From Armatimonadota bacterium (lineage in GTDB: Bacteria; Armatimonadota; UBA5829; DSUL01): a stretch of 64,000 bases of DNA. Below, one piece after another: positions 1,292 to 49,869 of the stretch; the first letter of the stretch is position 1, and each line of letters begins with the position of its first letter. The notes under the pieces are model-generated. The model ran no database searches. It was not told the DNA's origin and worked only from the letters and a program-made list of their open reading frames with translations. The stretch is taken from assembly GCA_052033935.1 (NCBI GenBank), contig JBPOJE010000073.1, positions 2,159-66,158 on the forward strand. The letters are read 5' to 3'. The position numbers and the translations under genes are program-made.

Positions 1292-3685
1292 GTGATACAG
1301 GTCGGCACGCTGGCCGAACTGATTGAGAGGGCCGCCGGCCGCCACCTCCGGAATGTGGCCTATATCTGGCGGCCGCTCTACCACGCCCGCCGGTTCACGT
1401 ACGCCGAGGTGTACAGCATGGCGCGGGGCGCGGTGGCCGTGCCGCTGATGGCGCAGAGCCAGCCCGATTTCATTTCGCGCATCGCAGGCATCACGGGCGC
1501 TTCCGCTGTCTTCAAATCGTCCGCGCTGAAAGCGGACATGGGGGGAATCCCTGTCTTCGATGTCGAGCAGGCCGTTCCGCGAGACCCCACGGAGCCTGTC
1601 GAGCCTCCGCCCAGGCTGGAACCCGATGACATTGCCCAGATTCTGTTCACATCTGGCACCACGGACAACCCCAGGGGTGTGCCTCTCACGCACCGGAACT
1701 TGCTCTCGAACGTCCGGGACATCAACCGGCTGGAGCTTGTTCGTCCCCGCGACCACCTGATGTCCATCCTCCCGCTCGCGCATTCGTTCGAGCAGGTGGC
1801 ATTGCTGTTCACCTCCATCGCGCTGGGTCTCACGGTGACGCAGGCGGCGTCGCTGTCCGGCCCGCACGTGCGGATGAACATGGTTGAGGACCGGCCGAGC
1901 GTGCTGGTGAGCGTCCCCGAGTTTCTGAAGCTGGCTCTGGGTCAGATCGAGGCCAGAGCCTCCGATACGGGTGGCACGGCGAAGCTGGAGCGGCTCTTCC
2001 GCATCGGCCCGAAGCTTCCGTTCTGGCTGCGCAGGGCGCTTGCGCGGCCGGTGCTGCGCAACTTTGGCGGCCGCCTGCGGCTCGCGATTTCCGGCGGCTC
2101 GGCGCTCGACGCACGCGTGGGGCAGAAATGGGAGGCGCTCGGTGTTATTCAGGGCTACGGTGCCACCGAATGCTTGCCCGTCATAACAGCCAACAGCCTG
2201 AAAGACAACCTGCTGAGTTCGGTCGGCAAGCCGTTGCCGAGCGTGGAGGTGAAGCTTGCGGACGATGGCGAGATCCTCGTGCGCGGGCCGAATGTGGCCG
2301 CTGGCTACTGGAACCGTTCCGGCGAGACACCCGAGCGCTTTCGCGATGGGTGGTATTACACGGACGATCTGGGTGAGCGGGACGGCGGCGGCCGCCTGCA
2401 CATCCGGGGTCGCAAGAAGTTCCTGATCGTGACCCCGGCGGGCGAGAACGTCTATCCGGAGGATATCGAAAGCGAGCTGTGCGAGGAGCACGAAGTCCGG
2501 GACGCCACCGTTCTCGCCTGGAAGCCGGGCGGGGTGTTCGAGATCCACACTGTTCTGCTTCTCAACCCCGAGCACGTGGGCGTCGATGCCCGCGCCATCG
2601 CCGAGCGGGTCAACGCAAGGCTTCAGCCTCACCAGCGTGTGCAGGGGGCGTCCGTGTGGGACACCGAGGATTTCCCCCGCACGGTCACGCGCAAAGTCAA
2701 GAAGAACGGCGTCCGCGCCTGGCTCGAGACCCGCGCCTCCGGTGCCGCTGCGGTCTCGACCGTTCCGGCGGGGGCCGTCGAGCGTGCTATCGCGCGGATT
2801 GCGGGCGTCCCGGCGGAACAGGTGTTGCCGGATATGCGGCTTGAGGCCGGCCTGAAGCTGGATTTTCTGGCAAGGGTCACACTCGCGGGCACCATCGAGG
2901 AATCCACGGGCCTTGTGCTGGACGAAGGCCAGGTCGGGCCGGAAACAACCGTCGCCGAACTCCGTGAGCACCTGAGCAAGAGAGAGCAAAAGCAGGAGCG
3001 GCACGTGTTCAACGAAGCCCCGCTGACACCCTGTGGCGTCGCGCAGCGGGCAATCTGTCAGAAGGCGCTCATCTGGCCCATCGCCTCGTACTTTGCGCCA
3101 ACAACCGTGACGGGCCTCCAGCATCTGGATGGGCTGAACGGGCCGGTTCTGTTCTGTCCCAACCATATTTCGCCCATAGACGCAGCCGTTGTGCTCAGAG
3201 CGCTTCCCGCGCGTTTCCACGCCACAACCGCTGTCGCGGCGGCGTCGGATGTCGTCTTCGACAATCCGGTGTACGGGTGGTATTTGGGGCTGCTGGAGTG
3301 CAGCATGAATGTGTTCCCCTTCGAGCGCGAAGGGCAGATCAAGTCGTCGCTTCAGTACACGGCCAGGCTGATGGACCGTGGGTTCTTGGTGCTTCTGTAC
3401 CCTGAAGGGCGCATCTCGACGGACGGGAAGCTGGGGGAGATTCGCCCCGGCGTTGGTCCGATCGCCGTTGAGATGGGCGCGCCGGTCGTGCCGGTCTGGC
3501 AGTCTGGGACGGACGGGGTGGTGCCCGCAAGCGCGGTGACGTTCGTCCGGCCGAAACGCCATCCGGTGCGCATCAGCATCAGCGAGCCGCTGCGGTTCCT
3601 CCCGGGGTGTCCGTACGATGCGGCCGCGCGCCAGATACGCGGCGCGCTCGATTCGTTGTCCGGCGGCCAGAAGCCGCCCGCTTAG
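1292..3685 (+). CDS. fused AMP-dependent acyl-CoA/acyl-ACP synthetase - ACP-like linker - 1-acyl-sn-glycerol-3-phosphate (PlsC/LPLAT) acyltransferase
   Basis: 797-aa ORF. FTSGTTDNPRGVPLTHRNL (AMP-binding P-loop), GYGATE motif, then a helical PP-binding-like segment (EAGLKLDFLARV; conserved Ser replaced by Phe). C-terminal NHISPIDAAVV (HX4D) and LYPEGRIS (FPEGTR) are acyltransferase motifs. Domain order is the reverse of E. coli Aas. Confidence 0.7.
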   Translation: MIQVGTLAELIERAAGRHLRNVAYIWRPLYHARRFTYAEVYSMARGAVAVPLMAQSQPDFISRIAGITGASAVFKSSALKADMGGIPVFDVEQAVPRDPTEPVEPPPRLEPDDIAQILFTSGTTDNPRGVPLTHRNLLSNVRDINRLELVRPRDHLMSILPLAHSFEQVALLFTSIALGLTVTQAASLSGPHVRMNMVEDRPSVLVSVPEFLKLALGQIEARASDTGGTAKLERLFRIGPKLPFWLRRALARPVLRNFGGRLRLAISGGSALDARVGQKWEALGVIQGYGATECLPVITANSLKDNLLSSVGKPLPSVEVKLADDGEILVRGPNVAAGYWNRSGETPERFRDGWYYTDDLGERDGGGRLHIRGRKKFLIVTPAGENVYPEDIESELCEEHEVRDATVLAWKPGGVFEIHTVLLLNPEHVGVDARAIAERVNARLQPHQRVQGASVWDTEDFPRTVTRKVKKNGVRAWLETRASGAAAVSTVPAGAVERAIARIAGVPAEQVLPDMRLEAGLKLDFLARVTLAGTIEESTGLVLDEGQVGPETTVAELREHLSKREQKQERHVFNEAPLTPCGVAQRAICQKALIWPIASYFAPTTVTGLQHLDGLNGPVLFCPNHISPIDAAVVLRALPARFHATTAVAAASDVVFDNPVYGWYLGLLECSMNVFPFEREGQIKSSLQYTARLMDRGFLVLLYPEGRISTDGKLGEIRPGVGPIAVEMGAPVVPVWQSGTDGVVPASAVTFVRPKRHPVRISISEPLRFLPGCPYDAAARQIRGALDSLSGGQKPPA

Positions 3686-3929: not shown

Positions 3930-6900
3930 ATGACACATCCACAGGCTTATCATGGCTTTAGCTCCGTCAGGTCCCTAGACCTTACCGCCTGCCTCGCAGT
4001 GCTGGCATTCGTGGTCGTGCTGGCCTCCGGCAGTGCGTACGGAGCGCCCCTCGACCGGGAGGCCCACGTCAAGCTCACGGACGGCATCCACGCGTCCGCG
4101 GGCGCGGAGGACCCGGCCTATCTCACCTTCTACGGTGACGCGACGCAGCTTCCCCGCAGGCAGTACAACCTCGGAGATTACTGTTTCTGGGGCAGCGGCT
4201 ACAAGACCAGTGATCTGCACGATGAGAAGCTCAAGGAAGCCGCTATACTCGGCGTGGGGATGGAAATCGCCTGGAACGCGATGCAGGGCGACCGGCCGGT
4301 GAACGAGCGGGCGCCGACGGACCTCACAAGATACGGCGTGGAAGATCGGGTCAACGACTACTTTGGCGACGGCTGCACGATTTCCGCGCAGGTCGGCTAC
4401 ACGCCCGGCTGGGCGAACGGGCTCATGGGCAAGAACTATCCGCCTAATATCGCGGTTGAGCAGGAGGCCCACGTCATGGCCGGGGGGAACACGTCGGTCA
4501 CCCTGGCTCATTCGCCGGTCGTCGTGAACATCCCGCTCTGGTTTCCGCTTATCGTGACACCCTCTCCAGTGCCAAAGACCCGGGTCGAGGATGAGGTCAT
4601 CACGACGAACTTCCAGCCCGACCCGGACCTGCAGGTTGACCTGCCAGGCAGGGTTCTCATCCGCACTTCCAGGAAGCCGATCATTGTCGGGACCGAGCAA
4701 GTCTGGGTGGACGAAGGCGACGGCTGGGTGCTCTGGAACAGGGTGGACAACATTTTCGATGCGCCCCTCGGCGATGCGGTTTACCAGGTGAACCGTCTCG
4801 GCGTCGTCCGGTTCAAACCAATGAACATTGAGCATGGCAGGACACCCGCGACCGGCTCCAGAGTCAAAATCTCGTATGACGCCATTGACGTTCAGTACAC
4901 CGCCGGGGCAGATTACCTGTTCGACAACCTGACGGGCACACTCACGCGAAGGATAGGCGACCTCTCCGGCTTTATCGCCTCTGAAACCTTTGACAGCACA
5001 ACGCTCGACAGCCGATGGCAGTGGATGAACCCGCCCGGGGCCTGGGATGTGAACACCACCCTGGCCGGACACCTGCACTACACCGTCAACTCGACCCCCC
5101 CGGACGGGGTGGGGCACTTCATCTACCAGAGTCTCAGCGGTGCGGGCGACTTCCGGATGTCCGCCAAAATCACAAACGCAGCGTGTTGGGAACCCGGGGT
5201 GCAGAAACCGCTGACCCAGACGGGGCTGATGGTCTATCAGGATGCGCAGAACTGGTTCCGCTACGGCCTGACAACCGACCAGGGCCGCCCGTACCTCACC
5301 CGGTGCGTCAACGGTGTCACAACGACAGCCGGCGGGGGCGGGGAGTACGGGTGGCAGGTCACGGCTCCGCGCTACATCACCGCCATGAAGCACGGAAACA
5401 CCTATACCGTGTACACGCACTACAGGCCCGGCGCCACTGCGCCTGACGGCGATTACCAGTTCGTCTGCACGTTCGACCAGACCCTGACGTACCCGCTCAA
5501 GGTTGGAGTCTCCAGCACCGGTCTGGATACGGCTGGCGTTGACGTGGACGAGGTGACCGTGGAGGTCCCGAGGATTCCCTCCAACGGCAAGGTCGCTGTC
5601 TTCTACAACTACCTCAACCCGGACCCGTGGCTGAGATATGTCCGGGAGACGGTAGGGTATTTCAAGGACAGAATCAAGTACTGGCAGTCGTGGAACGAGC
5701 CTGATCTGTGGATGTGCTGGGCGGGCGGACAGGACCTGCACGCCGTGATGCAAGGCTTGTTTGCTCAGGCGGTCCGCGAGGCCGACCCCGAAGCGCACGT
5801 GATCGGCGGTGGGTATGCCAACGGCTCCAACCATCAGATCGAGACGGTCTATAACATCGCCGGGGCCAACTCGTTCGACTATGCATCCTGGCACCCGTAC
5901 CTGTTCAGCAACCAGGCCCCCGACTCCATCGGCTGGGAGACCGTCGCCCACCAGCGCGCGCGCGACATCATGGCCAGCCACGGGGACGCTGACAAAGAGG
6001 TCTTCTTCGGTGAGATTTCGGCTGGCAGCGGTGTTCTGCAGAGCGGAGGCGGGCTGAACGACCGGAAACAGGCCGACTATGGCGCGCGGCTTCTTCTGCT
6101 GTCGCGCAAGCTTGGCTGGGTAAAGTCGGTTCAGTGGTGGCCGGGAGAGGGCGATCTCGCGGATGTTGGTATGGTTGAGGACAACGAGCACGGCTACCAC
6201 GGGGGCCTCTTCTACCGCATCACCGGGCGACAGCGCGACATATCGAAGCTGGCACGAGTGAATGGCCGCGTCTCGATCGAGGCGGCGCACCATATTGACC
6301 TGACCTACCGGGTTGGAGACCGTATTGTGGTGTCGGGCGTCACCGAACCGGACGTCTGGTTCAATGGGACATTCACTATCGAAGCTCTGGAGAGCGTTTA
6401 CAACCCGCTGTTCGGAACCTCGAAGATCATCCGGATTATTACCAGCCAGAGCGGCAAACCGGACGCCGCGGCAGAAGCGCCGTACGAGGGCAAGCTGGGC
6501 ATTGTGCGGCCGTATGTCGAGCCGAAGCCGATCTTCTACGCCTTCCGCAATCTCGCCTCGAACAGGGGCATCCTCATGGACCTGTGCGACTACGGCGCGG
6601 ACACCCAGATAATCCCGCCCGAGGGGAGCCACCTTCTGAACAGCGTCCGGCTGGGAGTCCGCGACAGGTCGGAGATTGCCGAGGTGACGGTGCGCGCCTC
6701 GCTCACCTGCACGGATGAGAGTGCGAAGCCGTCGCGAGTGGCGGCGGTTTACACGGGGTATGCCGGGCAGAAGGTGACTGTTGTGCACCTCAACCCCGCT
6801 GCACCGGCGCTCTGCTCCGAGCACTGGTCCATGCTGGCGCTCACCCCCTGGTACTTCGGGGTGGTTGGCTCGGTTTCGGGCTTCCAGGGCATTGCCGTGG

Positions 6901-7751
6901 CCGGCGAGCCGTTCACCTCTCTGAACGGGGTAGTTCAGTCGGTCACGATTCCCGAATCCAGCCTGCTGTATGCGCCGGGTGAGGAGTTCACGTTCGAGAC
7001 GTTTGCGGGTGACGGGCTGCATCAGGTGGCCAGGTGGAGTGCGCCCGTGGGCCTGTCAGGCCCGGGCGACATCTCGGTGGACCTGCTCGAGCCGGTCCGT
7101 GCGCGGTATGTGGAGATACAGATCCGAAGGTCCGGCGGCGCCGACAGCGTCGGGATTGACGAGATCGAGGTTCTCGATACTAGCGGTACCAATGTCGCCG
7201 AAGGCAAGCTGTACACGGTGGAGGGCTATCAGGACTGGTTCGCCACCCCCGAGGCTTCGGAGTACGAACTGGGCGAAGCGCGCCATCTGCCCGACAGCAC
7301 GAACGTGCGGCTTCCCGCCGCGGTTCTGTATCTGAAGGGCCAGGGCTTCGGCTACCTCGAGACCACGGACCGGGCCGCCGGTCTGCGTTTCGAAGGCGAG
7401 GTGGATGCGCAGCCGGGCGACCTCGTGACGCTGACGGGTTCGATGGGGACCACTCCGGGCGGCGAGAAGTACGTGCAGGTCCGGTCAATGACCGTCGTGG
7501 GCACCGGCCAGATCGGCTCGCTCGGAATGAACGGGGGCAACCTGCTCGAGCCGATGGTGGACGCGCTTCTCGTGCGAGTCTGGGGGCAGCTGGTGCCGGG
7601 TTCCGTGACCGACAACTCGTTCAGGATCACCACCTTCAACGGGGAGGTCGAGGTGCGGACGAACGCACCGACGAGTCTGCCGGAAGGGGAGATCATCACC
7701 GTGACGGGCGCGGCCGGTTACGATAACGGCCGGGTGATCTACGCTCAGTAG
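3930..7751 (+). CDS. large secreted multidomain glycoside hydrolase (clan GH-A-like catalytic domain with WNEP motif, discoidin/F5-8 type C-like domain, C-terminal beta-rich modules)
   Basis: ORF 3732..7751. Likely start ATG 3930 (MTHPQAYHGFSSVRSLDLTACLAVLAFVVVLASGSAYG signal peptide, GAAAGG upstream). YWQSWNEPDLW (acid/base Glu motif) and FFGEIS (candidate nucleophile) are present. ARYVEIQIRRSGGADSVGIDEIEV is discoidin-like. The C-terminus carries the recurrent module (see findings). Confidence 0.6.
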   Translation: MTHPQAYHGFSSVRSLDLTACLAVLAFVVVLASGSAYGAPLDREAHVKLTDGIHASAGAEDPAYLTFYGDATQLPRRQYNLGDYCFWGSGYKTSDLHDEKLKEAAILGVGMEIAWNAMQGDRPVNERAPTDLTRYGVEDRVNDYFGDGCTISAQVGYTPGWANGLMGKNYPPNIAVEQEAHVMAGGNTSVTLAHSPVVVNIPLWFPLIVTPSPVPKTRVEDEVITTNFQPDPDLQVDLPGRVLIRTSRKPIIVGTEQVWVDEGDGWVLWNRVDNIFDAPLGDAVYQVNRLGVVRFKPMNIEHGRTPATGSRVKISYDAIDVQYTAGADYLFDNLTGTLTRRIGDLSGFIASETFDSTTLDSRWQWMNPPGAWDVNTTLAGHLHYTVNSTPPDGVGHFIYQSLSGAGDFRMSAKITNAACWEPGVQKPLTQTGLMVYQDAQNWFRYGLTTDQGRPYLTRCVNGVTTTAGGGGEYGWQVTAPRYITAMKHGNTYTVYTHYRPGATAPDGDYQFVCTFDQTLTYPLKVGVSSTGLDTAGVDVDEVTVEVPRIPSNGKVAVFYNYLNPDPWLRYVRETVGYFKDRIKYWQSWNEPDLWMCWAGGQDLHAVMQGLFAQAVREADPEAHVIGGGYANGSNHQIETVYNIAGANSFDYASWHPYLFSNQAPDSIGWETVAHQRARDIMASHGDADKEVFFGEISAGSGVLQSGGGLNDRKQADYGARLLLLSRKLGWVKSVQWWPGEGDLADVGMVEDNEHGYHGGLFYRITGRQRDISKLARVNGRVSIEAAHHIDLTYRVGDRIVVSGVTEPDVWFNGTFTIEALESVYNPLFGTSKIIRIITSQSGKPDAAAEAPYEGKLGIVRPYVEPKPIFYAFRNLASNRGILMDLCDYGADTQIIPPEGSHLLNSVRLGVRDRSEIAEVTVRASLTCTDESAKPSRVAAVYTGYAGQKVTVVHLNPAAPALCSEHWSMLALTPWYFGVVGSVSGFQGIAVAGEPFTSLNGVVQSVTIPESSLLYAPGEEFTFETFAGDGLHQVARWSAPVGLSGPGDISVDLLEPVRARYVEIQIRRSGGADSVGIDEIEVLDTSGTNVAEGKLYTVEGYQDWFATPEASEYELGEARHLPDSTNVRLPAAVLYLKGQGFGYLETTDRAAGLRFEGEVDAQPGDLVTLTGSMGTTPGGEKYVQVRSMTVVGTGQIGSLGMNGGNLLEPMVDALLVRVWGQLVPGSVTDNSFRITTFNGEVEVRTNAPTSLPEGEIITVTGAAGYDNGRVIYAQ

Positions 7752-7922
7752 GGTTTTCGGAGAACTCAAAGTCTGCTATGCAGGGGCGCTCCGCCTACGG
7801 GAGGGGCGCCCGCATGGTATCATGAACCTGTCAGCGTGATGCCGGGCAGACGATACCCAGCCACGGCCTGTCGAGGGCCAACGGGTTGTCTGAGCCGGCA
7901 TCGAGTCACAAAGGTTCCTGCT

Positions 7923-10900
7923 ATGTCACGCCTGCCGTTCATTGCTACAGTCATTCTTGCGCTATCCGCCGCTGCGGCGCTGGCTGCTTCGCAGCCGCCC
8001 GTCGCGGGGACAATCAGCCCGGCCTCGGGAGATCTTGAGGCCGGAGCGGTTTACACGTTCACGGCCACCTTCGAAGACCCCGACGGCTATGCGGATATCG
8101 CGGACTGCCGCGTTCTGCTGAACACCGCCATCTCCGGCGCGAACGGCATTTTCGTCTTCTACAATGCTGTGAGCAACAAGCTCTACCTGCGCAACGACAA
8201 CAACACGGCGTGGCTGGGCGGGTATGCGCCCGGGTCGGCTGGCACGATAGACAACTCACAGTGCGCCGTCCACTGCTCCGGAAGCAGTGTGAGCGGATCG
8301 GGCAACAGGCTGACTGTGAACCTCTGCATTCTCCTTAAGGGCAGCCTCAGCGGAATCACACTTTCCGAGTGGCTGTATGCGGGAGACAGGTCGAAGCTGG
8401 GCGACGGCTGGAATCAGGCGGGCTCGATTCGCGTGGAGGCGTCGCCCGCTCCGCCCGTGACCGGAACCATCAGCCCCGCCGCCGGGCACCGCTTCGCGGG
8501 CGTCACGCACACGTTCACCGCGACGTTCGATGATCCGGAGGGATTCGAGGACATCCGCGACTGCCGCATCCTGCTCAATACCGCGATTTCCGGCGCGAAC
8601 GGCATATTCGTTTACTTTGACATCGCGAAGAACAGGGTCTATCTTCGCAGCGACAACAACACGGCGTGGCTGGGCGGATATGCTCCCGGCACCCCGAACA
8701 CAATCGAGAACGGGCGCTGCAGGGTCTATTGCGCCGGGACCAGCCTGCGCGGATCGGGAACCAGGCTGACCGTCACCCTGCAGGCTTACGTGAAGCCGGG
8801 AGTGGCCGGGAAGATTCTCAAAGAGTGGCTCTATGCGGGCGACAAGGCGGGCGCGGGCGACGGATGGAATCAGGCGGGCGCTCTCTACTTCGTTCCCCCC
8901 GCGCCGATGAACACCAGCGTCAGCCCGTCCAGCGGGCGGGTGTCGGCGCCGGGGTGGACGACCATCACCACGGCGCAGTACGACCCCAACGGGTTCGCTG
9001 ACATCAGAAGCTCCTACCTGCTCATCAACAGCAACTTCACGGGGCTCGGAGCGGTTTACGTGTGGTACGACGCGGTGGAGGACCTGCTCTATCTGCGCAA
9101 CGATGCCAACACGGGCTGGCTGGGCGGGTTCGCGCCTGGTTCGGAGAACATCATCTCGAACGGCCGCGCCGATCTGGACTGCGCCGCCACAACGGTTAAG
9201 GGCAGCGCCCAGACGCTGACGGTGGGCTGGCGCGTCAACATACGGCCGCCGCAGCCTGAGTGGGAGTGCGGGGCCTGGATGTATGCGGCCGACACGGCCG
9301 GGCTAAACTCAGGCTTCGAGAAGAAAGGTGACATCGTCTTCGACCAGGCACCCACGAATGCATCGCTCGAGCCGGCGTCGGGCGGCGCACTCTCGGTGGG
9401 GCAAACGTCTGTCCTGAGCGCAAAGTACACAGACCCGAGCGGCGCAGCCGACCTTCGCGGGGCGTACCTCGTGCTCAACACTACGCTGTCAAGCTTCCGC
9501 GGCGTTTCGCTCTGGTACGACGCCGGCGCGGACAGGCTGTGGCTGCGCAACGACCTGAACACGGCGTGGCTGGGCGGCATAGCGCCCGGAACCTCTGGCG
9601 TCATCGAGAACGGCTACTGCAAGATTGACTGCGCCGGAACGGCCGTCGAGCGCTCGGGCACGGATCTGGTGGTGAACTGGAAGATCGAGCCGAAGGCCTC
9701 GCTCAGGGGGAAAGCGCTCGGATCGTGGATGTACTGCGTTGACGCCGCCGGGCTGTCGGATGGCTGGGACCAGATGACAACCTACACCATCGGGAGCTAT
9801 CTCAATGTATCGCTCACGCCGTCATCCGGCGAAGTCCCCGCGCTGCAGCCGTTGTCGCTGACCACCGAATGCCTGGCACCTAACGGCGCGGCCGCGACGA
9901 GCACCTATCTGCTTCTGAACACGGCGGTCAACGCGGCGAACGGGGTGTATCTGTATTATGATGGGCCGGGCAACCGGCTCTATCTTCGCAACGACACCGG
10001 CTCGGCCTGGCTCGGCGGCTTCGCGCCGGGCAGCGCCAACACCATCGCCAACAGCCTGGTGACGGTGAACTGCGCGGGCACCACGGTTCAATCAGCCGAG
10101 GGGCGGATGCGGGTCGCCTGGTCGGTCGAGTTCAAGGCGTCGGACCGGCAGTTCACAGCCTGGATGTACACAGCCGACACCGCCAGGTTCACCGACGGCT
10201 GGGATACGATGGGCGTTCTGCAGGTCGTGAACCCAGACGGCATGGTTTACATACCGGCGGGTCCGGCCCTGATCGGCAGCGTTGGGGACGAGCCGTACGC
10301 CGAGAGCGACGAGCTTCCCCGGCACGAGGTATATCTGGCGGCATACTGGATAGGGCGCACCGAGGTGACACGCGCGCAGTACCGGGCGTTCATGGACTCG
10401 GGCGGATACCACAACCCCGCGTACTGGTCGGGCGAGGGCTGGACCTGGAAGATGGCCAACGACCGCACCGAGCCCGACTACTGGGCCGCGCAGCAGGACT
10501 GGGGCGGCTCCTCGTTCACGCAGACAGAGGCTCATCCGGTGGTCGGCGTTACGTACTACGAGGCCGAGGCTTACTGCGCCTGGGCGGGCGGGTATCTCCC
10601 CACAGAAGCGCAGTGGGAGAAGGCCGCGCGCTGGACGGGCAGCACGGCGAACGCGTACCCGTGGGGCGATGTGTGGGATCCGGAGAAGTGCAACAACTTC
10701 CACGACCGGAACCTGGCCGGGGGCGGGTATCAGGGCTATCAGACGGCGGCGGTGGGCAGCTACCCTGCCGGGGCAAGCCCGTACGGATGCCACGACATGG
10801 CCGGGAATGCGTGGGAATGGTGTCAGGACTGGTACGTTTCGTATCCGGGCAGCAGCGCTCCGTTTGACTTCACCGGTGCCTACCGCGTGGTGCGCGGCGG

Positions 10901-11000
10901 CGGGTGGGACTACGGACTGGACGGCGCGCGCTCGGCGAACCGGGCCTACTACGCCCCCGTCAACCGCTGGCACGACTGCGGATTCCGCCTGGCCAGGTAG
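7923..11000 (+). CDS. secreted protein with five tandem ~150-aa repeats and a C-terminal FGE-sulfatase (SUMF1/DUF323) fold domain
   Basis: ORF 7836..11000. Probable start ATG 7923 (MSRLPFIATVILALSAAAALAAS signal, AAAGG RBS). The C-terminus reads YLAAYWIGRTEVTRAQYRAFMDSGGY...GCHDMAGNAWEWCQDWY...YRVVRGGGWDY...WHDCGFRLAR, typical of the FGE-sulfatase fold. The canonical catalytic Cys pair of true FGEs is not evident. Confidence 0.75.
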   Translation: MSRLPFIATVILALSAAAALAASQPPVAGTISPASGDLEAGAVYTFTATFEDPDGYADIADCRVLLNTAISGANGIFVFYNAVSNKLYLRNDNNTAWLGGYAPGSAGTIDNSQCAVHCSGSSVSGSGNRLTVNLCILLKGSLSGITLSEWLYAGDRSKLGDGWNQAGSIRVEASPAPPVTGTISPAAGHRFAGVTHTFTATFDDPEGFEDIRDCRILLNTAISGANGIFVYFDIAKNRVYLRSDNNTAWLGGYAPGTPNTIENGRCRVYCAGTSLRGSGTRLTVTLQAYVKPGVAGKILKEWLYAGDKAGAGDGWNQAGALYFVPPAPMNTSVSPSSGRVSAPGWTTITTAQYDPNGFADIRSSYLLINSNFTGLGAVYVWYDAVEDLLYLRNDANTGWLGGFAPGSENIISNGRADLDCAATTVKGSAQTLTVGWRVNIRPPQPEWECGAWMYAADTAGLNSGFEKKGDIVFDQAPTNASLEPASGGALSVGQTSVLSAKYTDPSGAADLRGAYLVLNTTLSSFRGVSLWYDAGADRLWLRNDLNTAWLGGIAPGTSGVIENGYCKIDCAGTAVERSGTDLVVNWKIEPKASLRGKALGSWMYCVDAAGLSDGWDQMTTYTIGSYLNVSLTPSSGEVPALQPLSLTTECLAPNGAAATSTYLLLNTAVNAANGVYLYYDGPGNRLYLRNDTGSAWLGGFAPGSANTIANSLVTVNCAGTTVQSAEGRMRVAWSVEFKASDRQFTAWMYTADTARFTDGWDTMGVLQVVNPDGMVYIPAGPALIGSVGDEPYAESDELPRHEVYLAAYWIGRTEVTRAQYRAFMDSGGYHNPAYWSGEGWTWKMANDRTEPDYWAAQQDWGGSSFTQTEAHPVVGVTYYEAEAYCAWAGGYLPTEAQWEKAARWTGSTANAYPWGDVWDPEKCNNFHDRNLAGGGYQGYQTAAVGSYPAGASPYGCHDMAGNAWEWCQDWYVSYPGSSAPFDFTGAYRVVRGGGWDYGLDGARSANRAYYAPVNRWHDCGFRLAR
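7992..10233 (+). repeat. five in-frame tandem repeats (~440-456 bp each) inside the FGE-domain gene
   Basis: Protein repeats share TISPASG...YTFTATF(E/D)DP(D/E)G(F/Y)(A/E)DI(R/A)DCR(V/I)LLNTAISGANGIFV...LYLRNDNNTAWLGGYAPG...C.G...GSG.RLTV...EWLYAGD..G.GDGWNQAG. Copies 1 and 2 are also highly similar at the nucleotide level. Unit starts are near 7992, 8449, 8894, 9341 and 9796. Confidence 0.8.
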
Positions 11001-11009
11001 CGCTCTCGC

Positions 11010-11660
11010 TCAGGGCAAGCAGATACTGACGCCCTCCGAGTGCAGGTAGGCCTGCGCCATCAGCCCGAGCAGCATCACCAGCCAGAAGAACTGGTGGGCC
11101 ATCTCCTTGTTGCGGAGCAGCCTCATCAGCGAGAAATCGCCGCGCAGCGCGTCCGCGTTCCATCGCATCGGCAGGAAGCTTGGCACCCGGCGGACGTATT
11201 CCGGAAACGCCTGCGGATGAATCCGCGTGAGGTAGTCCTCTTCCCATCGTATCTGGGCCCGGTACGTTATCGCGAACGAGACCACGAACAGCAGTAGAAG
11301 CGGCAGGCTGTGGACGAAAGCGCACAGCCCAACACCCGCGACGAACGATCCGAGATACAGCGGGTTGCGAGAGAGTGCGTACGGCCCGTCCGTGGCAAGT
11401 TCGGTGATCTTTAGCAGCGTCCCGGCGGACCAGAGCCGGATCAGCATGCCGGCCGCCATCAGCGCCAGCGCCCACCACGCGAACGCCTTGCGGAGTGTCT
11501 CCGCCAGGCTCAGGTCCGGGGGAAGCGCCGCCAGTGTGCGGGCGTTCACGACGAACGCCAGCAGAAAGACGAGATAGCCGAACACCAGGCGCAGCCGGGC
11601 CGTGCGCGGCACCGGCGGCCTGTTCTTGTGCGAAGTGATATCGGGCTCGGGGGGATTCAA
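11010..11660 (-). CDS. isoprenylcysteine carboxyl methyltransferase (ICMT) / phospholipid methyltransferase family membrane protein
   Basis: 216-aa ORF, polytopic. GPYALSRNPLYLGSFV matches the ICMT/PEMT family signature. Confidence 0.7.
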   Translation of the reverse strand: MNPPEPDITSHKNRPPVPRTARLRLVFGYLVFLLAFVVNARTLAALPPDLSLAETLRKAFAWWALALMAAGMLIRLWSAGTLLKITELATDGPYALSRNPLYLGSFVAGVGLCAFVHSLPLLLLFVVSFAITYRAQIRWEEDYLTRIHPQAFPEYVRRVPSFLPMRWNADALRGDFSLMRLLRNKEMAHQFFWLVMLLGLMAQAYLHSEGVSICLP

Positions 11661-11675
11661 GACAGTCTGGATGCT

Positions 11676-12258
11676 CTACTCCTTCTGCTTCTCGGGAGCG
11701 GCGGCGGCATTGAAGCCCTGGTTTCTCAGTGTCTCAGCCTGCTTCTCCGCCTCGGCGCGCTCTTTGAAGGAACCCGCCTCGACCCGCCAGACATTCACAC
11801 CGCCGCTCGGCACCCTGGCGACTCGCGCCGTCAGCCCTTCCGCCCTGATCTCATCGGCGGCTTTCCGCGCGCCGGACTCATCCGGATAGTCGCCCACAAC
11901 CACGCAGTACGATCGGCGCGGCGTGGCGGGCCTGTCTTCGCTTATGTCCACATTCACCCCGCCCGGGGCGAGCGATGGGGGGTTCTGGACGCTATCTTGA
12001 GGGGAAGCAACCGGGCGCGCGGGGTCCACCCGGGGAGCGGGCGGCCTTGCGCCCCCGGGGAGCATCGGCCCGACGAAGTAGTACCCGATCAGCCCGCTCG
12101 CGACGAACGCGGTGAGGACTGCGAGAAACATGCCGAGCGCCCGTCCGGCGCGCCTGCGATCCACTGACCTGCGACTTTCCAATGTCCTCTGCTGCTGTGT
12201 GAAAAGTGGAGACAGACGCGTCCACGCCTCGCCTCCGTAGTGACTAGTGCACATCATA
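11676..12258 (-). CDS. SPOR domain protein (peptidoglycan-binding, division-associated)
   Basis: C-terminus RRSYCVVVGDYPDESGARKAADEIRAEGLTARV...WRVEAGSFKERAEAEKQAE is a SPOR repeat, preceded by a TM helix (MFLAVLTAFVASGLIGYYFV). The track ORF 11676..13523 is an artefactual N-terminal extension overlapping icd. Start is ambiguous (ATG 12258 or ATG 12131). Confidence 0.6.
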
Positions 12259-27652: not shown

Positions 27653-28720
27653 TTAGCGCGCGAACCGGAACCCGAACGATTTGGTCCAGTAGTTCTCCGG
27701 GCGGTTGTTGCTGCGGGCCGAGACGCGGGCACAGTAGTCCGTGCCGTTCCAGCCGCAGCCCCGGATGGCGCGATATGTGCCGGTGGCCGGCCCTTGCGGG
27801 TCCTGGGTGGGCGAGACACTGTAGTAGCTGCTGCTGAACCAGTCCAGGCACCATTCGGCGACGTTGCCGGCCATGTCATGGCATCCGTACGGGCTCACTC
27901 CGGAGGGGTAGCACCCCACCGGCGCCGTCTGATAACCCGGGTACAGCGTGTCGTTGGTGTTGTTTGACCTCTGGGCATCATACACACTGCCCCAGGGATA
28001 GATGTTCGGGTAGCTGCCGGTCCAGCGGCCGGCCTTCTCCCACTGCGCTTCCGTGGGCAACCGTCCGCCTGCCCACGCGCAGTATGCCTCGGCCTCGTAG
28101 TAGCTTACGGCAACCACAGGATGAGCGTCAGTCTGTGTAAAGGGCCCCGTGCCCCAGTCCTGCTGCTCGGCCCAGGAATCGGGCTCGGTGCGGTCGCGGC
28201 CTTCCTTCCACGTCCAGCCCGCGCTCGACCAGTACGCGGGATTGCTGTAGCCGCCCGCCTGCATAAAGGCGCGGTAGTCGCCCCGAGTCACTTCGTACTT
28301 GCCGATCCAGTAGCCGGAGAGGGTCACCTGGTGCTGCGGCAGTTCGCTTGTCGCCGAGTATGGCTCGCTGCCATTGTTGCCCATCAGAAAAGCCCCGGCT
28401 GGGACATACACCATCTCAGTCCGGCAGGGACCGGCGTAGAGAGTTGACTTGCAGGGCGCCTGTGATGCCGCCAGAACGCCCTCGGCATAGTCGCCCTCGA
28501 CGATCAGAAAATCGCCCGGCTTGCCGGTGATTCCCGTAACCGTTATCTCCCCCCTGCCGTCCGACAGCACCAGCGGCGACTCAGAGGTCACACACCCGTA
28601 CACGACGACCGGGTTGGGAGGGTTCGGGGCGTACCCCAGATCGGAGATGCGGACGGTGTACGCCGCCCATCCAGGTGCGGACGATGCGAGCAGCACAAGA
28701 GCGCAGAACAGCTTTTTCAT
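27653..28720 (-). CDS. secreted FGE-sulfatase-fold (SUMF1/DUF323) domain protein, paralog of the C-terminus of 7923..11000
   Basis: Probable start MKKLFCALVLLASSAPGWA (28720). YWIGKYEVTRGDYRAFMQAGGYSNPAYWSSAGWTWK...GCHDMAGNVAEWCLDW...FGFRFAR is near-identical in motif order to the 7923 gene C-terminus. Confidence 0.75.
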   Translation of the reverse strand: MKKLFCALVLLASSAPGWAAYTVRISDLGYAPNPPNPVVVYGCVTSESPLVLSDGRGEITVTGITGKPGDFLIVEGDYAEGVLAASQAPCKSTLYAGPCRTEMVYVPAGAFLMGNNGSEPYSATSELPQHQVTLSGYWIGKYEVTRGDYRAFMQAGGYSNPAYWSSAGWTWKEGRDRTEPDSWAEQQDWGTGPFTQTDAHPVVAVSYYEAEAYCAWAGGRLPTEAQWEKAGRWTGSYPNIYPWGSVYDAQRSNNTNDTLYPGYQTAPVGCYPSGVSPYGCHDMAGNVAEWCLDWFSSSYYSVSPTQDPQGPATGTYRAIRGCGWNGTDYCARVSARSNNRPENYWTKSFGFRFAR

Positions 28721-28780
28721 CTGAGTCCTCATGCCTATGGTGCGACAGGAGGGCCGGGCTGTCAAGGCCGAAAGCGCGGT

Positions 28781-48066: not shown

Positions 48067-48123
48067 CCGGTGAACGCCCCCGAACAATCACTGGCAGAGT
48101 CTTCTGAGGAGAGAACGGACGAG

Positions 48124-49869
48124 ATGAATAGTTTCCCATTGCTGAATGTCTGCGTCGCGGCATGCGCCGCGGCGGCGCTGTCCGCCGCATCGGCGGCGGA
48201 GCCCGTCTGGAACATCCGGCAGATTCCGATCGAACGGGTGTCGGTGGTAGCGCATCGCGGAGCCGGCTTTCTGGCACCCGAGAACACCATGAGCGCGCTC
48301 GAGCTTTCGTGGAGCATGGGCTGTATCCCCGAGGTGGACGTGCGCACTACGAAAGACGGCCACGTGATGATGTTCCACGACGGCAACTTCGCGCGGATAC
48401 TTCCGAACGCTTCCGAGGAGATGAAAAAGAAGCGCCTAGAAGACCTGACGTATGACGAGGCGAAAAAGCTGGACATCGGGGCGTTCCGCGGCCCCGAGCA
48501 TGCCGGGCAGCGTATCGTGAGCCTGGCGGATATCTGCGCCGCGCTAAAGAAGGACCCGAAGCGGCGGGTGTATCTGGACGTCAAGAACGTGGACTTCTCG
48601 CAGATGGCGCGTGAGACGGAAGGCGTGCACGAGCAGGTGATCCTGGCGACCGGCTCGGAGGAGGACTGCACGCGCTGGAAGAAAGTGGCCCCGCGCAGCG
48701 ACACCTTCCTGTGGGTGGGCACCTGGGACGACAAGGACGACACGAACGTCGAGAAGCGGTTCGAGAAGCTGCGCGCGGCGGGCTTCGCGAACATCAACCG
48801 GTTGCAGGTGCACTGCCATTTCACGGGTGGAGGTGGCGGCACGATGATCCCGAGCGATGCGTTCATCCGCCGCGCCGCCGATGAGGTTCGCGGTCACGGC
48901 ATCGAGTTCCAGACGATGCCCTGGAACATCCCGGAGAGCCCCGAGGCGTACGTGAGGCTGATGGACCTCGGCAGCGCCGGGTTTGGCACCGACCGGCCGG
49001 ATGTGGCCGTGAAGGCGATCCGCGACTACTACCGCAACGGGCCGAAGAACTGGAACGTGCGCGACCACATCCCGCTCAAGAGCGTCACCGTGCAGGCGCA
49101 TCGGGGCGCGGGCGATCTGGCGCCGGAGGGCTCGCAGGAGGCGTTCGAGCTGGGGTGGAGCCTCGGCTGCATTCCCGAGGCCGACCTGCGGGTGACGAAG
49201 GACGGCGTCATCGTCTCGTTCCACGACAACAACTTCGCGCGCATCGTGCCGGACGCTTCCGAGTATCTCAAGAAGAAGGGTGTCGCCGACCTCACTTTCG
49301 AGGAAGCGCGAAAGCTGGACGTCGGCAGCTTCCGGAACAAGAAGTTCGCCGGGCAGAAAATGCTGAGCCTTGCCGAGATGGTCGCGACGCTCAAGGCGCA
49401 CCCGAAGCGTTCGCTCTACATTGACATCAAGAAGGTGGACTTCGCTCAGCTCGCCAGGGAGACGGTGGAAGTGCATCCTCAGTTGATTCTCGCGAGCACG
49501 CGTTACGAGGAGATCAAACAGTGGCGGAAGCTCGCGCCGAGGTCGAGGACTCTGCACTGGATGGGCGGCCCGCAGGAGGAACTGGCGAAACGGCTGGTGG
49601 CCCTTCGGGCAGAGAACTTCGCCTTCATTGACCAGCTTCAGATTCACGTCAACACGAGCAAGGACGGCGTCTTTTCTCCGGACGAGGAGTTCCTGCGGAG
49701 CGCGGGAAACGAACTTCGCGCCCATGGTATTCTGTTCCAGATCCTGCCGTGGGGCCGGAAGGACGCGAAAACGTATCACCGGCTGATGGACCTGGGGTGC
49801 GCCAGCTTCGCGACCGATTACCCGGACACGGTGATGGAAGCGATCCGCGACTACTACAAGCGAGGCTGA
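48124..49869 (+). CDS. secreted protein with two tandem glycerophosphodiester-phosphodiesterase (GDPD)-like domains
   Basis: Signal MNSFPLLNVCVAACAAAALSAASA. Domain 1 is VVAHRGAGFLAPENT...EVDVRTTKDGHVMMFHD. Domain 2 is VQAHRGAGDLAPEGS...EADLRVTKDGVIVSFHD. Both carry the HRG...PEN...E.D...HD GDPD motifs, about 290 aa each. Confidence 0.75.
   Translation: MNSFPLLNVCVAACAAAALSAASAAEPVWNIRQIPIERVSVVAHRGAGFLAPENTMSALELSWSMGCIPEVDVRTTKDGHVMMFHDGNFARILPNASEEMKKKRLEDLTYDEAKKLDIGAFRGPEHAGQRIVSLADICAALKKDPKRRVYLDVKNVDFSQMARETEGVHEQVILATGSEEDCTRWKKVAPRSDTFLWVGTWDDKDDTNVEKRFEKLRAAGFANINRLQVHCHFTGGGGGTMIPSDAFIRRAADEVRGHGIEFQTMPWNIPESPEAYVRLMDLGSAGFGTDRPDVAVKAIRDYYRNGPKNWNVRDHIPLKSVTVQAHRGAGDLAPEGSQEAFELGWSLGCIPEADLRVTKDGVIVSFHDNNFARIVPDASEYLKKKGVADLTFEEARKLDVGSFRNKKFAGQKMLSLAEMVATLKAHPKRSLYIDIKKVDFAQLARETVEVHPQLILASTRYEEIKQWRKLAPRSRTLHWMGGPQEELAKRLVALRAENFAFIDQLQIHVNTSKDGVFSPDEEFLRSAGNELRAHGILFQILPWGRKDAKTYHRLMDLGCASFATDYPDTVMEAIRDYYKRG

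Follow-up and report, generated by a model that had tools for sequence, protein, structure and literature searches.

A predicted secreted Armatimonadota protein that pairs five old Ig-like repeats with a candidate TvpA-like binding domain

We analysed a 64,000-nucleotide stretch of an Armatimonadota genome (assembly GCA_052033935.1, contig JBPOJE010000073.1, positions 2,159 to 66,158; hereafter the window), which contains a gene for a protein of 1025 residues in which five tandem repeats precede a C-terminal domain of the formylglycine-generating enzyme (FGE) fold. The reading that we favour, with moderate confidence, is that of a secreted binding protein of fixed specificity, in which five immunoglobulin (Ig)-like modules carry an FGE-fold lectin head resembling that of the variable protein TvpA. 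The five Ig-like copies would form an extended stalk, or an auxiliary adhesion region, presenting the C-terminal FGE-type C-type-lectin domain, which would be non-enzymatic in the sense of FGE or EgtB. In the clade of the window protein, loops that are catalytic or substrate-binding in FGE and EgtB would have become two hypervariable loops on a rigidly conserved scaffold. The last ~35 residues may form the ligand-binding site, because their scaffold and variable positions are those mutated by diversity-generating retroelements (DGRs) in TvpA-like proteins. The specificity of this site would now be fixed, either frozen after past DGR action or evolved by ordinary substitution.

The open reading frame (ORF) starts with an ATG at 7923, which has an AAGG ~8 nt on its 5' side, and ends with a stop codon at 11000 (Table 1); an alternative, longer ORF begins with a GTG at 7836. 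The identical 1025-aa product is obtained by gene calling on four Logan contigs that are independent of one another and stem from two or more samples or sequencing runs. A scan of GTDB species genomes identified an ortholog in a sister-species metagenome-assembled genome, Armatimonadota bacterium AnMBR.bin211 (locus L003, 5836–9015), whose upstream and downstream genes match those of the window gene. The N-terminal segment MSRLPFIATVILALSAAAALA, read from the translation, shows a basic n-region, a hydrophobic core and an A-x-A site, has no lipobox cysteine, and is 100% conserved in the ortholog; the protein is thus predicted to be secreted through a Sec signal peptide. Pfam recognizes a single family in the product, FGE-sulfatase (PF03781), at residues 772–1025 (E = 3.7e-54, profile positions 3–255 of 255), which bears out the FGE-sulfatase fold proposed in a first-pass annotation made from the DNA letters. 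The same annotation had counted five in-frame repeats of ~150 aa ahead of this domain, and we find exactly these, 147–152 aa long (146 aa for the fifth) and with start-to-start spacings of 456, 450, 450 and 441 nt.

Table 1. Positions of the gene, its predicted parts and two further genes of the window
Feature	Position	Strand	Basis or remarks
Whole gene: signal peptide, five Ig-like repeats and FGE-type C-type-lectin domain	7923..11000	+	ORF list, identical Logan calls
Predicted Sec signal peptide MSRLPFIATVILALSAAAALA, cleavage before A(S)	7923..7988	+	read from translation
Repeat 1 (R1; 152 aa), predicted Ig-like beta-sandwich, uncurated family	7992..8447	+	repeat search and protein alignment
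Repeat 2 (R2; 150 aa), copy used for the structure model	8448..8897	+	
Repeat 3 (R3; 150 aa)	8898..9347	+	repeat search and protein alignment
Repeat 4 (R4; 147 aa)	9348..9788	+	repeat search and protein alignment
Repeat 5 (R5; 146 aa)	9789..10226	+	repeat search and protein alignment
FGE-sulfatase (PF03781) domain, C-type-lectin-fold subclass, without FGE catalytic cysteines	10236..10997	+	Pfam, PDB matches
Segment equivalent to a DGR variable region (VR), aa 991–1025, putative ligand-binding surface	10893..10997	+	gapless alignment to the VR of locus L073
Second FGE-sulfatase gene, 370 aa (PF03781, 7.9e-56)	27653-28765	-	signal peptide, ~95-aa beta-rich N-terminal domain
1273-aa protein directly upstream, same orientation	3930-7751	+	no Pfam match, no PDB sequence match

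The five repeats are old, and each copy is under purifying selection. R1 and R2 share 61% amino-acid identity and 67% nucleotide identity in a codon alignment (73% over the best 271 nt), with no exact match longer than 27 nt; in all other pairs, 35–42% of the residues and 50–55% of the nucleotides are identical. These values contradict the first-pass annotation, which had called copies 1 and 2 nearly identical at the DNA level and had deduced a recent expansion or ongoing recombination. Tandem Repeats Finder reported no repeat over 7000–12000, because the copies are too diverged. The ortholog carries the same five repeats, one-to-one, and the same head. Copies in the same position are 88–97% identical between the two genes (89% for R1, 97% for R3, 93% for R4 and 88% for R5), as against 35–61% among paralogous copies, and the five-copy array is therefore older than the split of the two lineages. 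At a synonymous divergence (dS) of 0.17 between the genes, the ratio of non-synonymous to synonymous divergence (dN/dS) is 0.31, 0.21, 0.07, 0.18 and 0.40 for R1 to R5 and 0.09 for the FGE core. The count of five agrees in four assemblies, and a collapse of copies by the assembler is not possible because their DNA identity is only ~52–67%. What is invariant across the copies is W-L-G-G-x-A-P-G together with L-R-x-D; the longer string NTAWLGGYAPG, previously described as invariant, is restricted to R1 and R2. The cysteine pair, previously described as conserved, is present as CxxxC in three of the five copies, and its two cysteines occur in 65% and 41% of 728 domains of the wider family.

The sequence of the repeat matches no catalogued domain, as had been noted at first reading: Pfam and NCBIfam return nothing even at E ≤ 1, a sequence search of the Protein Data Bank (PDB) finds no match, and 48 scanned homologues have no Pfam family in common over their repeats. 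The AlphaFold2 model of R2, built from 20 homologues, is confident (predicted local distance difference test (pLDDT) 97.5, predicted TM-score 0.91) and all-beta, with 13 strands. A Foldseek search of the PDB with this model gave only weak, generic Ig matches (E ~5e-4, TM 0.4–0.5). According to the model, then, the repeat has an Ig-like beta-sandwich fold that is generic in type yet enlarged, and no solved structure is closely related to it.

To place the repeat in a family, we ran an exhaustive profile search over 1.84 billion cluster representatives (50% identity clusters). At E ≤ 1e-3 it returned 4,901 representative proteins, a number that falls to 3,524 at E ≤ 1e-10 and to 1,251 at E ≤ 1e-30. 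Each of the top 150 carries 3–13 copies (median 4), and proteins among them are as long as 6,360 aa; a word-indexed search with the repeat found only 31 short proteins, some of which consist of a signal peptide and one domain. Pfam partners in the 48 homologues include RCC1 and PD40 propellers, subtilase, matrixin, reprolysin and papain-like peptidases, SpvB, PKD, Big_13 and CarboxypepD_reg. Most carriers belong to Omnitrophota, Armatimonadota (Abditibacteriaceae among them) and Chloroflexota/Anaerolineae; some are from Planctomycetales, Bryobacteraceae and Nitrospirota. Over the 728 domain instances, the family signature comprises P10, D29, G32, Y57, N62, L66, D69, G81, N88, G104, D132, W140 and G144, and a polar hairpin motif, N-x-L-Y-L-x-N-D-x-x-T-x-W-x-G-G-x-x-P-G, is strongly conserved. 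The pairing with an FGE-type head is rare: an FGE-sulfatase partner occurs in just 2 of the 48 homologues, only 1 of the 150 best family representatives besides the ortholog has the combination, and the Ig-like repeat is absent from all 84 loci (L046–L129) around FGE-domain homologues. Judged by their sequences, the repeats belong to a large uncurated family typical of giant secreted modular proteins.

The residues missing from the C-terminal domain suggest that it is neither an FGE-type nor an EgtB-type enzyme; most plausibly it is a binding module. Its best sequence matches in the PDB include EgtB (4x8b, 1.4e-41), of which the C-terminal domain alone is matched, and OvsA; FGEs match at ~1e-20 and the Treponema DGR protein TvpA (2y3c) at 8.7e-11. 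In an alignment with human FGE, whose motif MC336HRSYC341 is exact in PDB 2aii/1y1e, both catalytic cysteines fall on non-cysteine residues of the window segment RVVRGGGWDYGLDGARSANRAYYAPVNRWHDCGFRLAR, and no cysteine occurs in the segment WDYGLDGARSANR or among the ~25 residues that follow 'RGGGW'. The alignment confirms the earlier observation that the catalytic pair is missing, and with it the view that the protein is not a classical sulfatase maturase. The absence is not unusual, however: none of the 120 closest homologues of the head (54–69% identical) has the pair, and the FGE-type lectin domains targeted by DGRs also lack it (PMC5758913).

A feature missed by the first-pass annotation is a DGR-type VR scaffold in the C-terminal 35 residues. 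Residues 991–1025 have the layout RGGGW-x7-R-S-A-x-R-x4-P-x3-W-x3-GFRLAR. Across 120 close homologues, the head is nearly invariant except at residues 996–1002 and 1008–1019, two variable stretches that flank the invariant R1003, A1005, R1007, P1012 and GFR. Y, S, D, G and N prevail in the 17 high-entropy columns of the scaffold, where K, E, Q, M and W make up 3.9% of the residues, compared with 16.5% in the other high-entropy columns of these homologues. The favoured residues are the set reachable from NNY codons, as is expected of the adenine mutagenesis of AAC codons by a DGR. Residue 1004 (10932–10934) is a serine in both the window gene and its ortholog and a cysteine in 88% of close homologues; it belongs to the 'R-C-A-x-R' motif, the cysteine of which we take to be the structural disulfide Cys346 of human FGE. 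In the window protein, a cysteine stands instead at the hypervariable residue 1019 (10977–10979).

Relatives of the head that are targets of DGRs support this assignment of the scaffold. Among the targets of DGRs, FGE-sulfatase-type C-type-lectin (CLec) domains form the largest class (PMC5758913; see also PMC7159879), and in TvpA-like variable proteins a CLec1 VR lies within the FGE-sulfatase domain (category 'b' of Wu et al. 2018; PMC5758913; PDB 2y3c). Genuine pairs of a template repeat (TR) and a VR were present at 2 of the 80 metagenome loci that encode relatives, L073 and L108. The L073 VR (8623–8765) and TR (9246–9388) are 84% identical, with an A in the TR at 20 of the 23 mismatches; the same holds for 20 of 23 mismatches at L108. 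The L073 VR (RGGSF DGSPRDA RCAFR FLIL P DGD W DDF GFR) aligns without gaps to residues 991–1025 of the window protein (RGGGW DYGLDGA RSANR AYYA P VNR W HDC GFR), and the Asn, His and Tyr codons of the L073 TR (NNNPRNA RCAYR NHNH P NND W NNN) coincide with the hypervariable columns. A bAvd gene lies at 8831–9181 of this locus (PF22296, 1.4e-23). The metagenomic DGR as a whole spans 5828–9388 of L073, and in its 982-aa target the FGE-type VR domain is found together with a weak HNH_2 match, NACHT and HEAT repeats; bAvd and the TR come after this target. The ORF at 9387–10847 was considered as the reverse transcriptase (RT) of this system and rejected, since, judged by eye, it reads like an M20-type peptidase.

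The sister genome AnMBR.bin211 carries a related arrangement (locus L005, contig JAXGLP010000001.1). There, a paralogue of the head with 60% identity (27–911) is located directly upstream of a bAvd gene (1014–1391, 1.3e-16). An ORF at 1348–1866, which has no Pfam match, begins with what we read as a fragment of a DGR RT, and an IS110 transposase gene (2096–2878, minus strand) lies just 3' of it. No TR is detectable at this locus. From its sequence, the region 1–2900 looks like a decayed DGR cassette.

Several observations weigh against the reading of the protein as a lectin with fixed specificity on an Ig-like stalk. The NNY-like residue bias could reflect the composition of binding loops and not a history of DGR action, and no TR occurs in cis at the loci of close homologues (>50% identity), 19 metagenome loci included; nor is there a DGR in cis around the close homologues P0184, P0188 and P0110. 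The AlphaFold model of the FGE domain, computed from a 24-sequence alignment, was poor (pLDDT 52) and was not used, so that the exposure of the variable loops rests on TvpA-type homology. The 1025-aa protein has no anchor motif; its surface display is uncertain, and it may be periplasmic or released. The polar motif L-R-N-D-x-N-T-x-W-L-G-G-x-A-P-G is unusually well conserved, which hints that the repeat has a role beyond that of a passive spacer. Finally, close homologues bear the name 'SUMF1/EgtB/PvdO family nonheme iron enzyme' in public databases, which leaves some room for an enzymatic role.

Such a role would fall to a secreted non-heme-iron or copper oxidase of the SUMF1/EgtB/PvdO superfamily that acts on an extracellular or periplasmic substrate and uses the repeats as its targeting part, an explanation that we regard as unlikely. 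The matches to EgtB and OvsA are in its favour, as are the homologue names, among them 'iron(II)-dependent oxidoreductase', and the extreme conservation of the domain core (55–69% identity among thousands of proteins). The iron ligands of EgtB, a His triad, sit in its DinB domain, however, and a DinB-like domain is absent from the window protein, the N-terminal 770 residues of which comprise the signal peptide and the Ig-like repeats. Aligned to 4x8b with phmmer, the head has an 8-residue gap opposite the EgtB segment 'FTPMIYQRY', which we take to contain the catalytic Tyr, and 'AYY' opposite 'NWD', presumably the substrate-binding residues. Among NCBIfam models, matches are confined to the C-terminal domain: TIGR03440 (EgtB) scores 165 against a cut-off of 360 and matches at model positions 171–413 only, and the EgtB, SenA and OvoA models all score less than half of their cut-offs, with matches limited to their C-terminal halves. 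The cysteine pair of FGE is missing as well. In the clade of the window protein, the hypervariable positions coincide exactly with those that make up the active sites of the enzymes, which is incompatible with a conserved active site.

If the head is a binding domain of the DGR-target type, it matters whether it is still being rewritten, and the window gene is probably not actively diversified. A blastn search of the window with 10701–11020 (word size 7) found no TR; the only match was to the conserved core of a second, homologous FGE gene, at 27838–27944, and blastn with the same word size matched nothing but homologous genes in the fetched loci, with no TR-like sequence in any of them. In the window, tblastn with two bAvd proteins gave no match to Avd, and tblastn with the RT-like N-terminal fragment from L005 gave none to an RT, although no validated full-length RT served as a query in this search. 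A regular expression for RT motifs also found nothing in the window, a weak test, since it found no RT in the 80 metagenome loci either. Pfam scans, which among the ORFs of the window covered mainly the neighbouring genes, revealed neither Avd nor RT. The VR itself does not differ between four assemblies, which derive from two or more samples. Compared with the ortholog, it differs at 4 of 35 codons (TAC/TTC, GTC/ATC, CAC/AAC and AGG/AAG; dN/dS 0.42), and ordinary synonymous changes also occur within the segment. At its variable positions, 15 of the 19 codons are NNC.

We give only a slim chance to a more ambitious reading, in which the repeats are a new and widespread Ig-like family with a glycan- or partner-binding hairpin (N-x-L-Y-L-R-N-D-x-N-T-x-W-L-G-G-x-A-P-G) and the head is a remote or recently orphaned target of an Armatimonadota DGR; were both parts true, the protein would be a two-tier adhesin with a programmable tip. 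It appears quite improbable to us that a DGR located elsewhere in the genome acts on the window gene from a distance and periodically rewrites the final ~105 nt from a TR by adenine mutagenesis, so that the Ig-like stalk would carry a variable head for binding. Remote targets are known for Treponema and other DGRs (PMC5758913, PMC7159879), and several features of the window gene would fit one: its VR scaffold has the same layout as genuine DGR VRs, the NNC codons prevail at the variable positions, and the three internal differences from the ortholog (the first three codon pairs above) lie at DGR-variable positions and involve A. The apparent DGR remnant beside the 60%-identical paralogue in the sister genome points in the same direction. 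Against an active remote DGR stand the lack of any detected TR, Avd or RT from −7.9 to +53 kb, the identity of the VR across assemblies and samples, and the small number of changed codons at the dS given above, which are accompanied by synonymous changes not involving A. Moreover, a single DGR-like cassette was seen in the lineage, and it seems to be broken, with an IS110 transposase gene following the RT-like fragment and no TR found. A single TR serving both FGE genes of the window was considered and rejected, because the two genes share no VR DNA.

Two further explanations fare worse than a binding head of fixed specificity. A component of an envelope machine, comparable to the FGE-fold lipoproteins GldJ, GldK and PorK of type IX secretion and gliding, is very improbable: the partial matches to GldK/PorK are weak (NCBIfam 5e-18, PDB 1e-9), with a score of 66 against a cut-off of 350, the signal peptide has no lipobox, there are no type IX secretion genes among the scanned neighbours, and the host belongs to Armatimonadota and not to Bacteroidota. 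A genuine FGE that matures sulfatases has next to no chance of being correct, for although PF03781 matches and 'formylglycine-generating enzyme required for sulfatase activity' is the JGI name of some homologues, the idea is refuted at the level of the defining residues by the absence of both catalytic cysteines, no real ORF of the window contains the sulfatase signature C/S-x-P-x-R, and the genes nearby are unrelated.

The neighbours scanned with Pfam include AMP-binding/acyltransferase, PEMT-like, SPOR and Iso_dh (isocitrate/isopropylmalate dehydrogenase) genes, among others, and the orphan 1273-aa protein encoded directly upstream. The latter is likewise encoded next to and upstream of the ortholog in the sister genome (L003, 1738–5751), and we take its 'WNEPD' motif to be reminiscent of clan GH-A glycosidases. 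The second FGE gene of the window adjoins ABC sugar-transporter genes, and no TR, Avd or RT was found near it. Its core is 72% identical in DNA to 10242–10833; the similarity ends at 10833, and the last ~165 nt are unrelated. Elsewhere in the window, the ORF at 48070–49869 (599 aa) contains an internal tandem duplication of ~810 nt (48220–49032 versus 49066–49857, 63% identity). A motif, 'GLNN[IV]GLLV..WGRV...Y.Y[IL]DDGS', recurs in several large ORFs, at ~34508 (minus strand), ~39863 (plus) and ~55577 (plus), which suggests that surface proteins of this genome have a small domain in common; the C-terminal end of the 1273-aa protein and the N-terminal domain of short FGE paralogues look similar to it. 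At two other loci (L047, 6556–11182; L048, 3011–7637), two close FGE paralogues lie in tandem, each followed by a small PDDEXK_3 (PF13366) gene. A sulfatase gene (PF00884) comes next at both, an odd linkage, as the FGE domains there lack the catalytic cysteines.

Our results correct two impressions that the sequence gives at first sight: the repeats are no recent expansion, and the missing FGE cysteines are unexceptional. They place the protein in the TvpA-like class, in which loops that once formed the active site now provide a variable surface for binding. What is modestly new is the Ig-like domain family, which no curated entry covers; the protein is otherwise of a known kind. With ~4,900 clusters and no Pfam or NCBIfam model, this large family could aid the annotation of giant surface proteins of uncultivated phyla. 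A remote DGR, should one come to light, would show that Armatimonadota have surface proteins diversified by DGRs.

Each part of the protein can be set beside a known system. The repeats share with tandem Ig-like modules (Big, PKD, He_PIG and fn3-type stalks) the beta-sandwich fold, as predicted by the model, the arrangement in head-to-tail arrays (3–13 copies) within large secreted proteins, and the promiscuous pairing with proteases, propellers and lectin-like heads; they differ in having no Pfam or NCBIfam model and in their conserved polar hairpin. The sulfoxide and selenoxide synthases EgtB, OvoA and SenA are the closest solved relatives of the head (4x8b), yet the window protein has no DinB-type N-terminal domain and a gap where EgtB has 'FTPMIYQRY'. 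FGE (SUMF1; PDB 1y1e, 2q17, 6s07) has in common with the head the PF03781 fold and the frame motifs 'RGG(S/G)(Y/W)' and 'GFR', whereas Cys336 and Cys341 are absent from the head and there is no sulfatase context. With TvpA-like proteins, the window protein shares an FGE-type C-type-lectin fold at the extreme C-terminus without the FGE catalytic cysteines, and a VR scaffold, W-x7-R-(C/S)-A-x-R-x4-P-x3-W-x3-GFR, with variability at the same positions. It differs from them in that no TR, Avd or RT was found in 64 kb and in that its VR appears to vary little, if at all, between samples and relative to the ortholog. N-terminal domains of a wide variety are appended to the FGE-type CLec heads of that class (PMC5758913), and in the window protein the appendage consists of five Ig-like copies.

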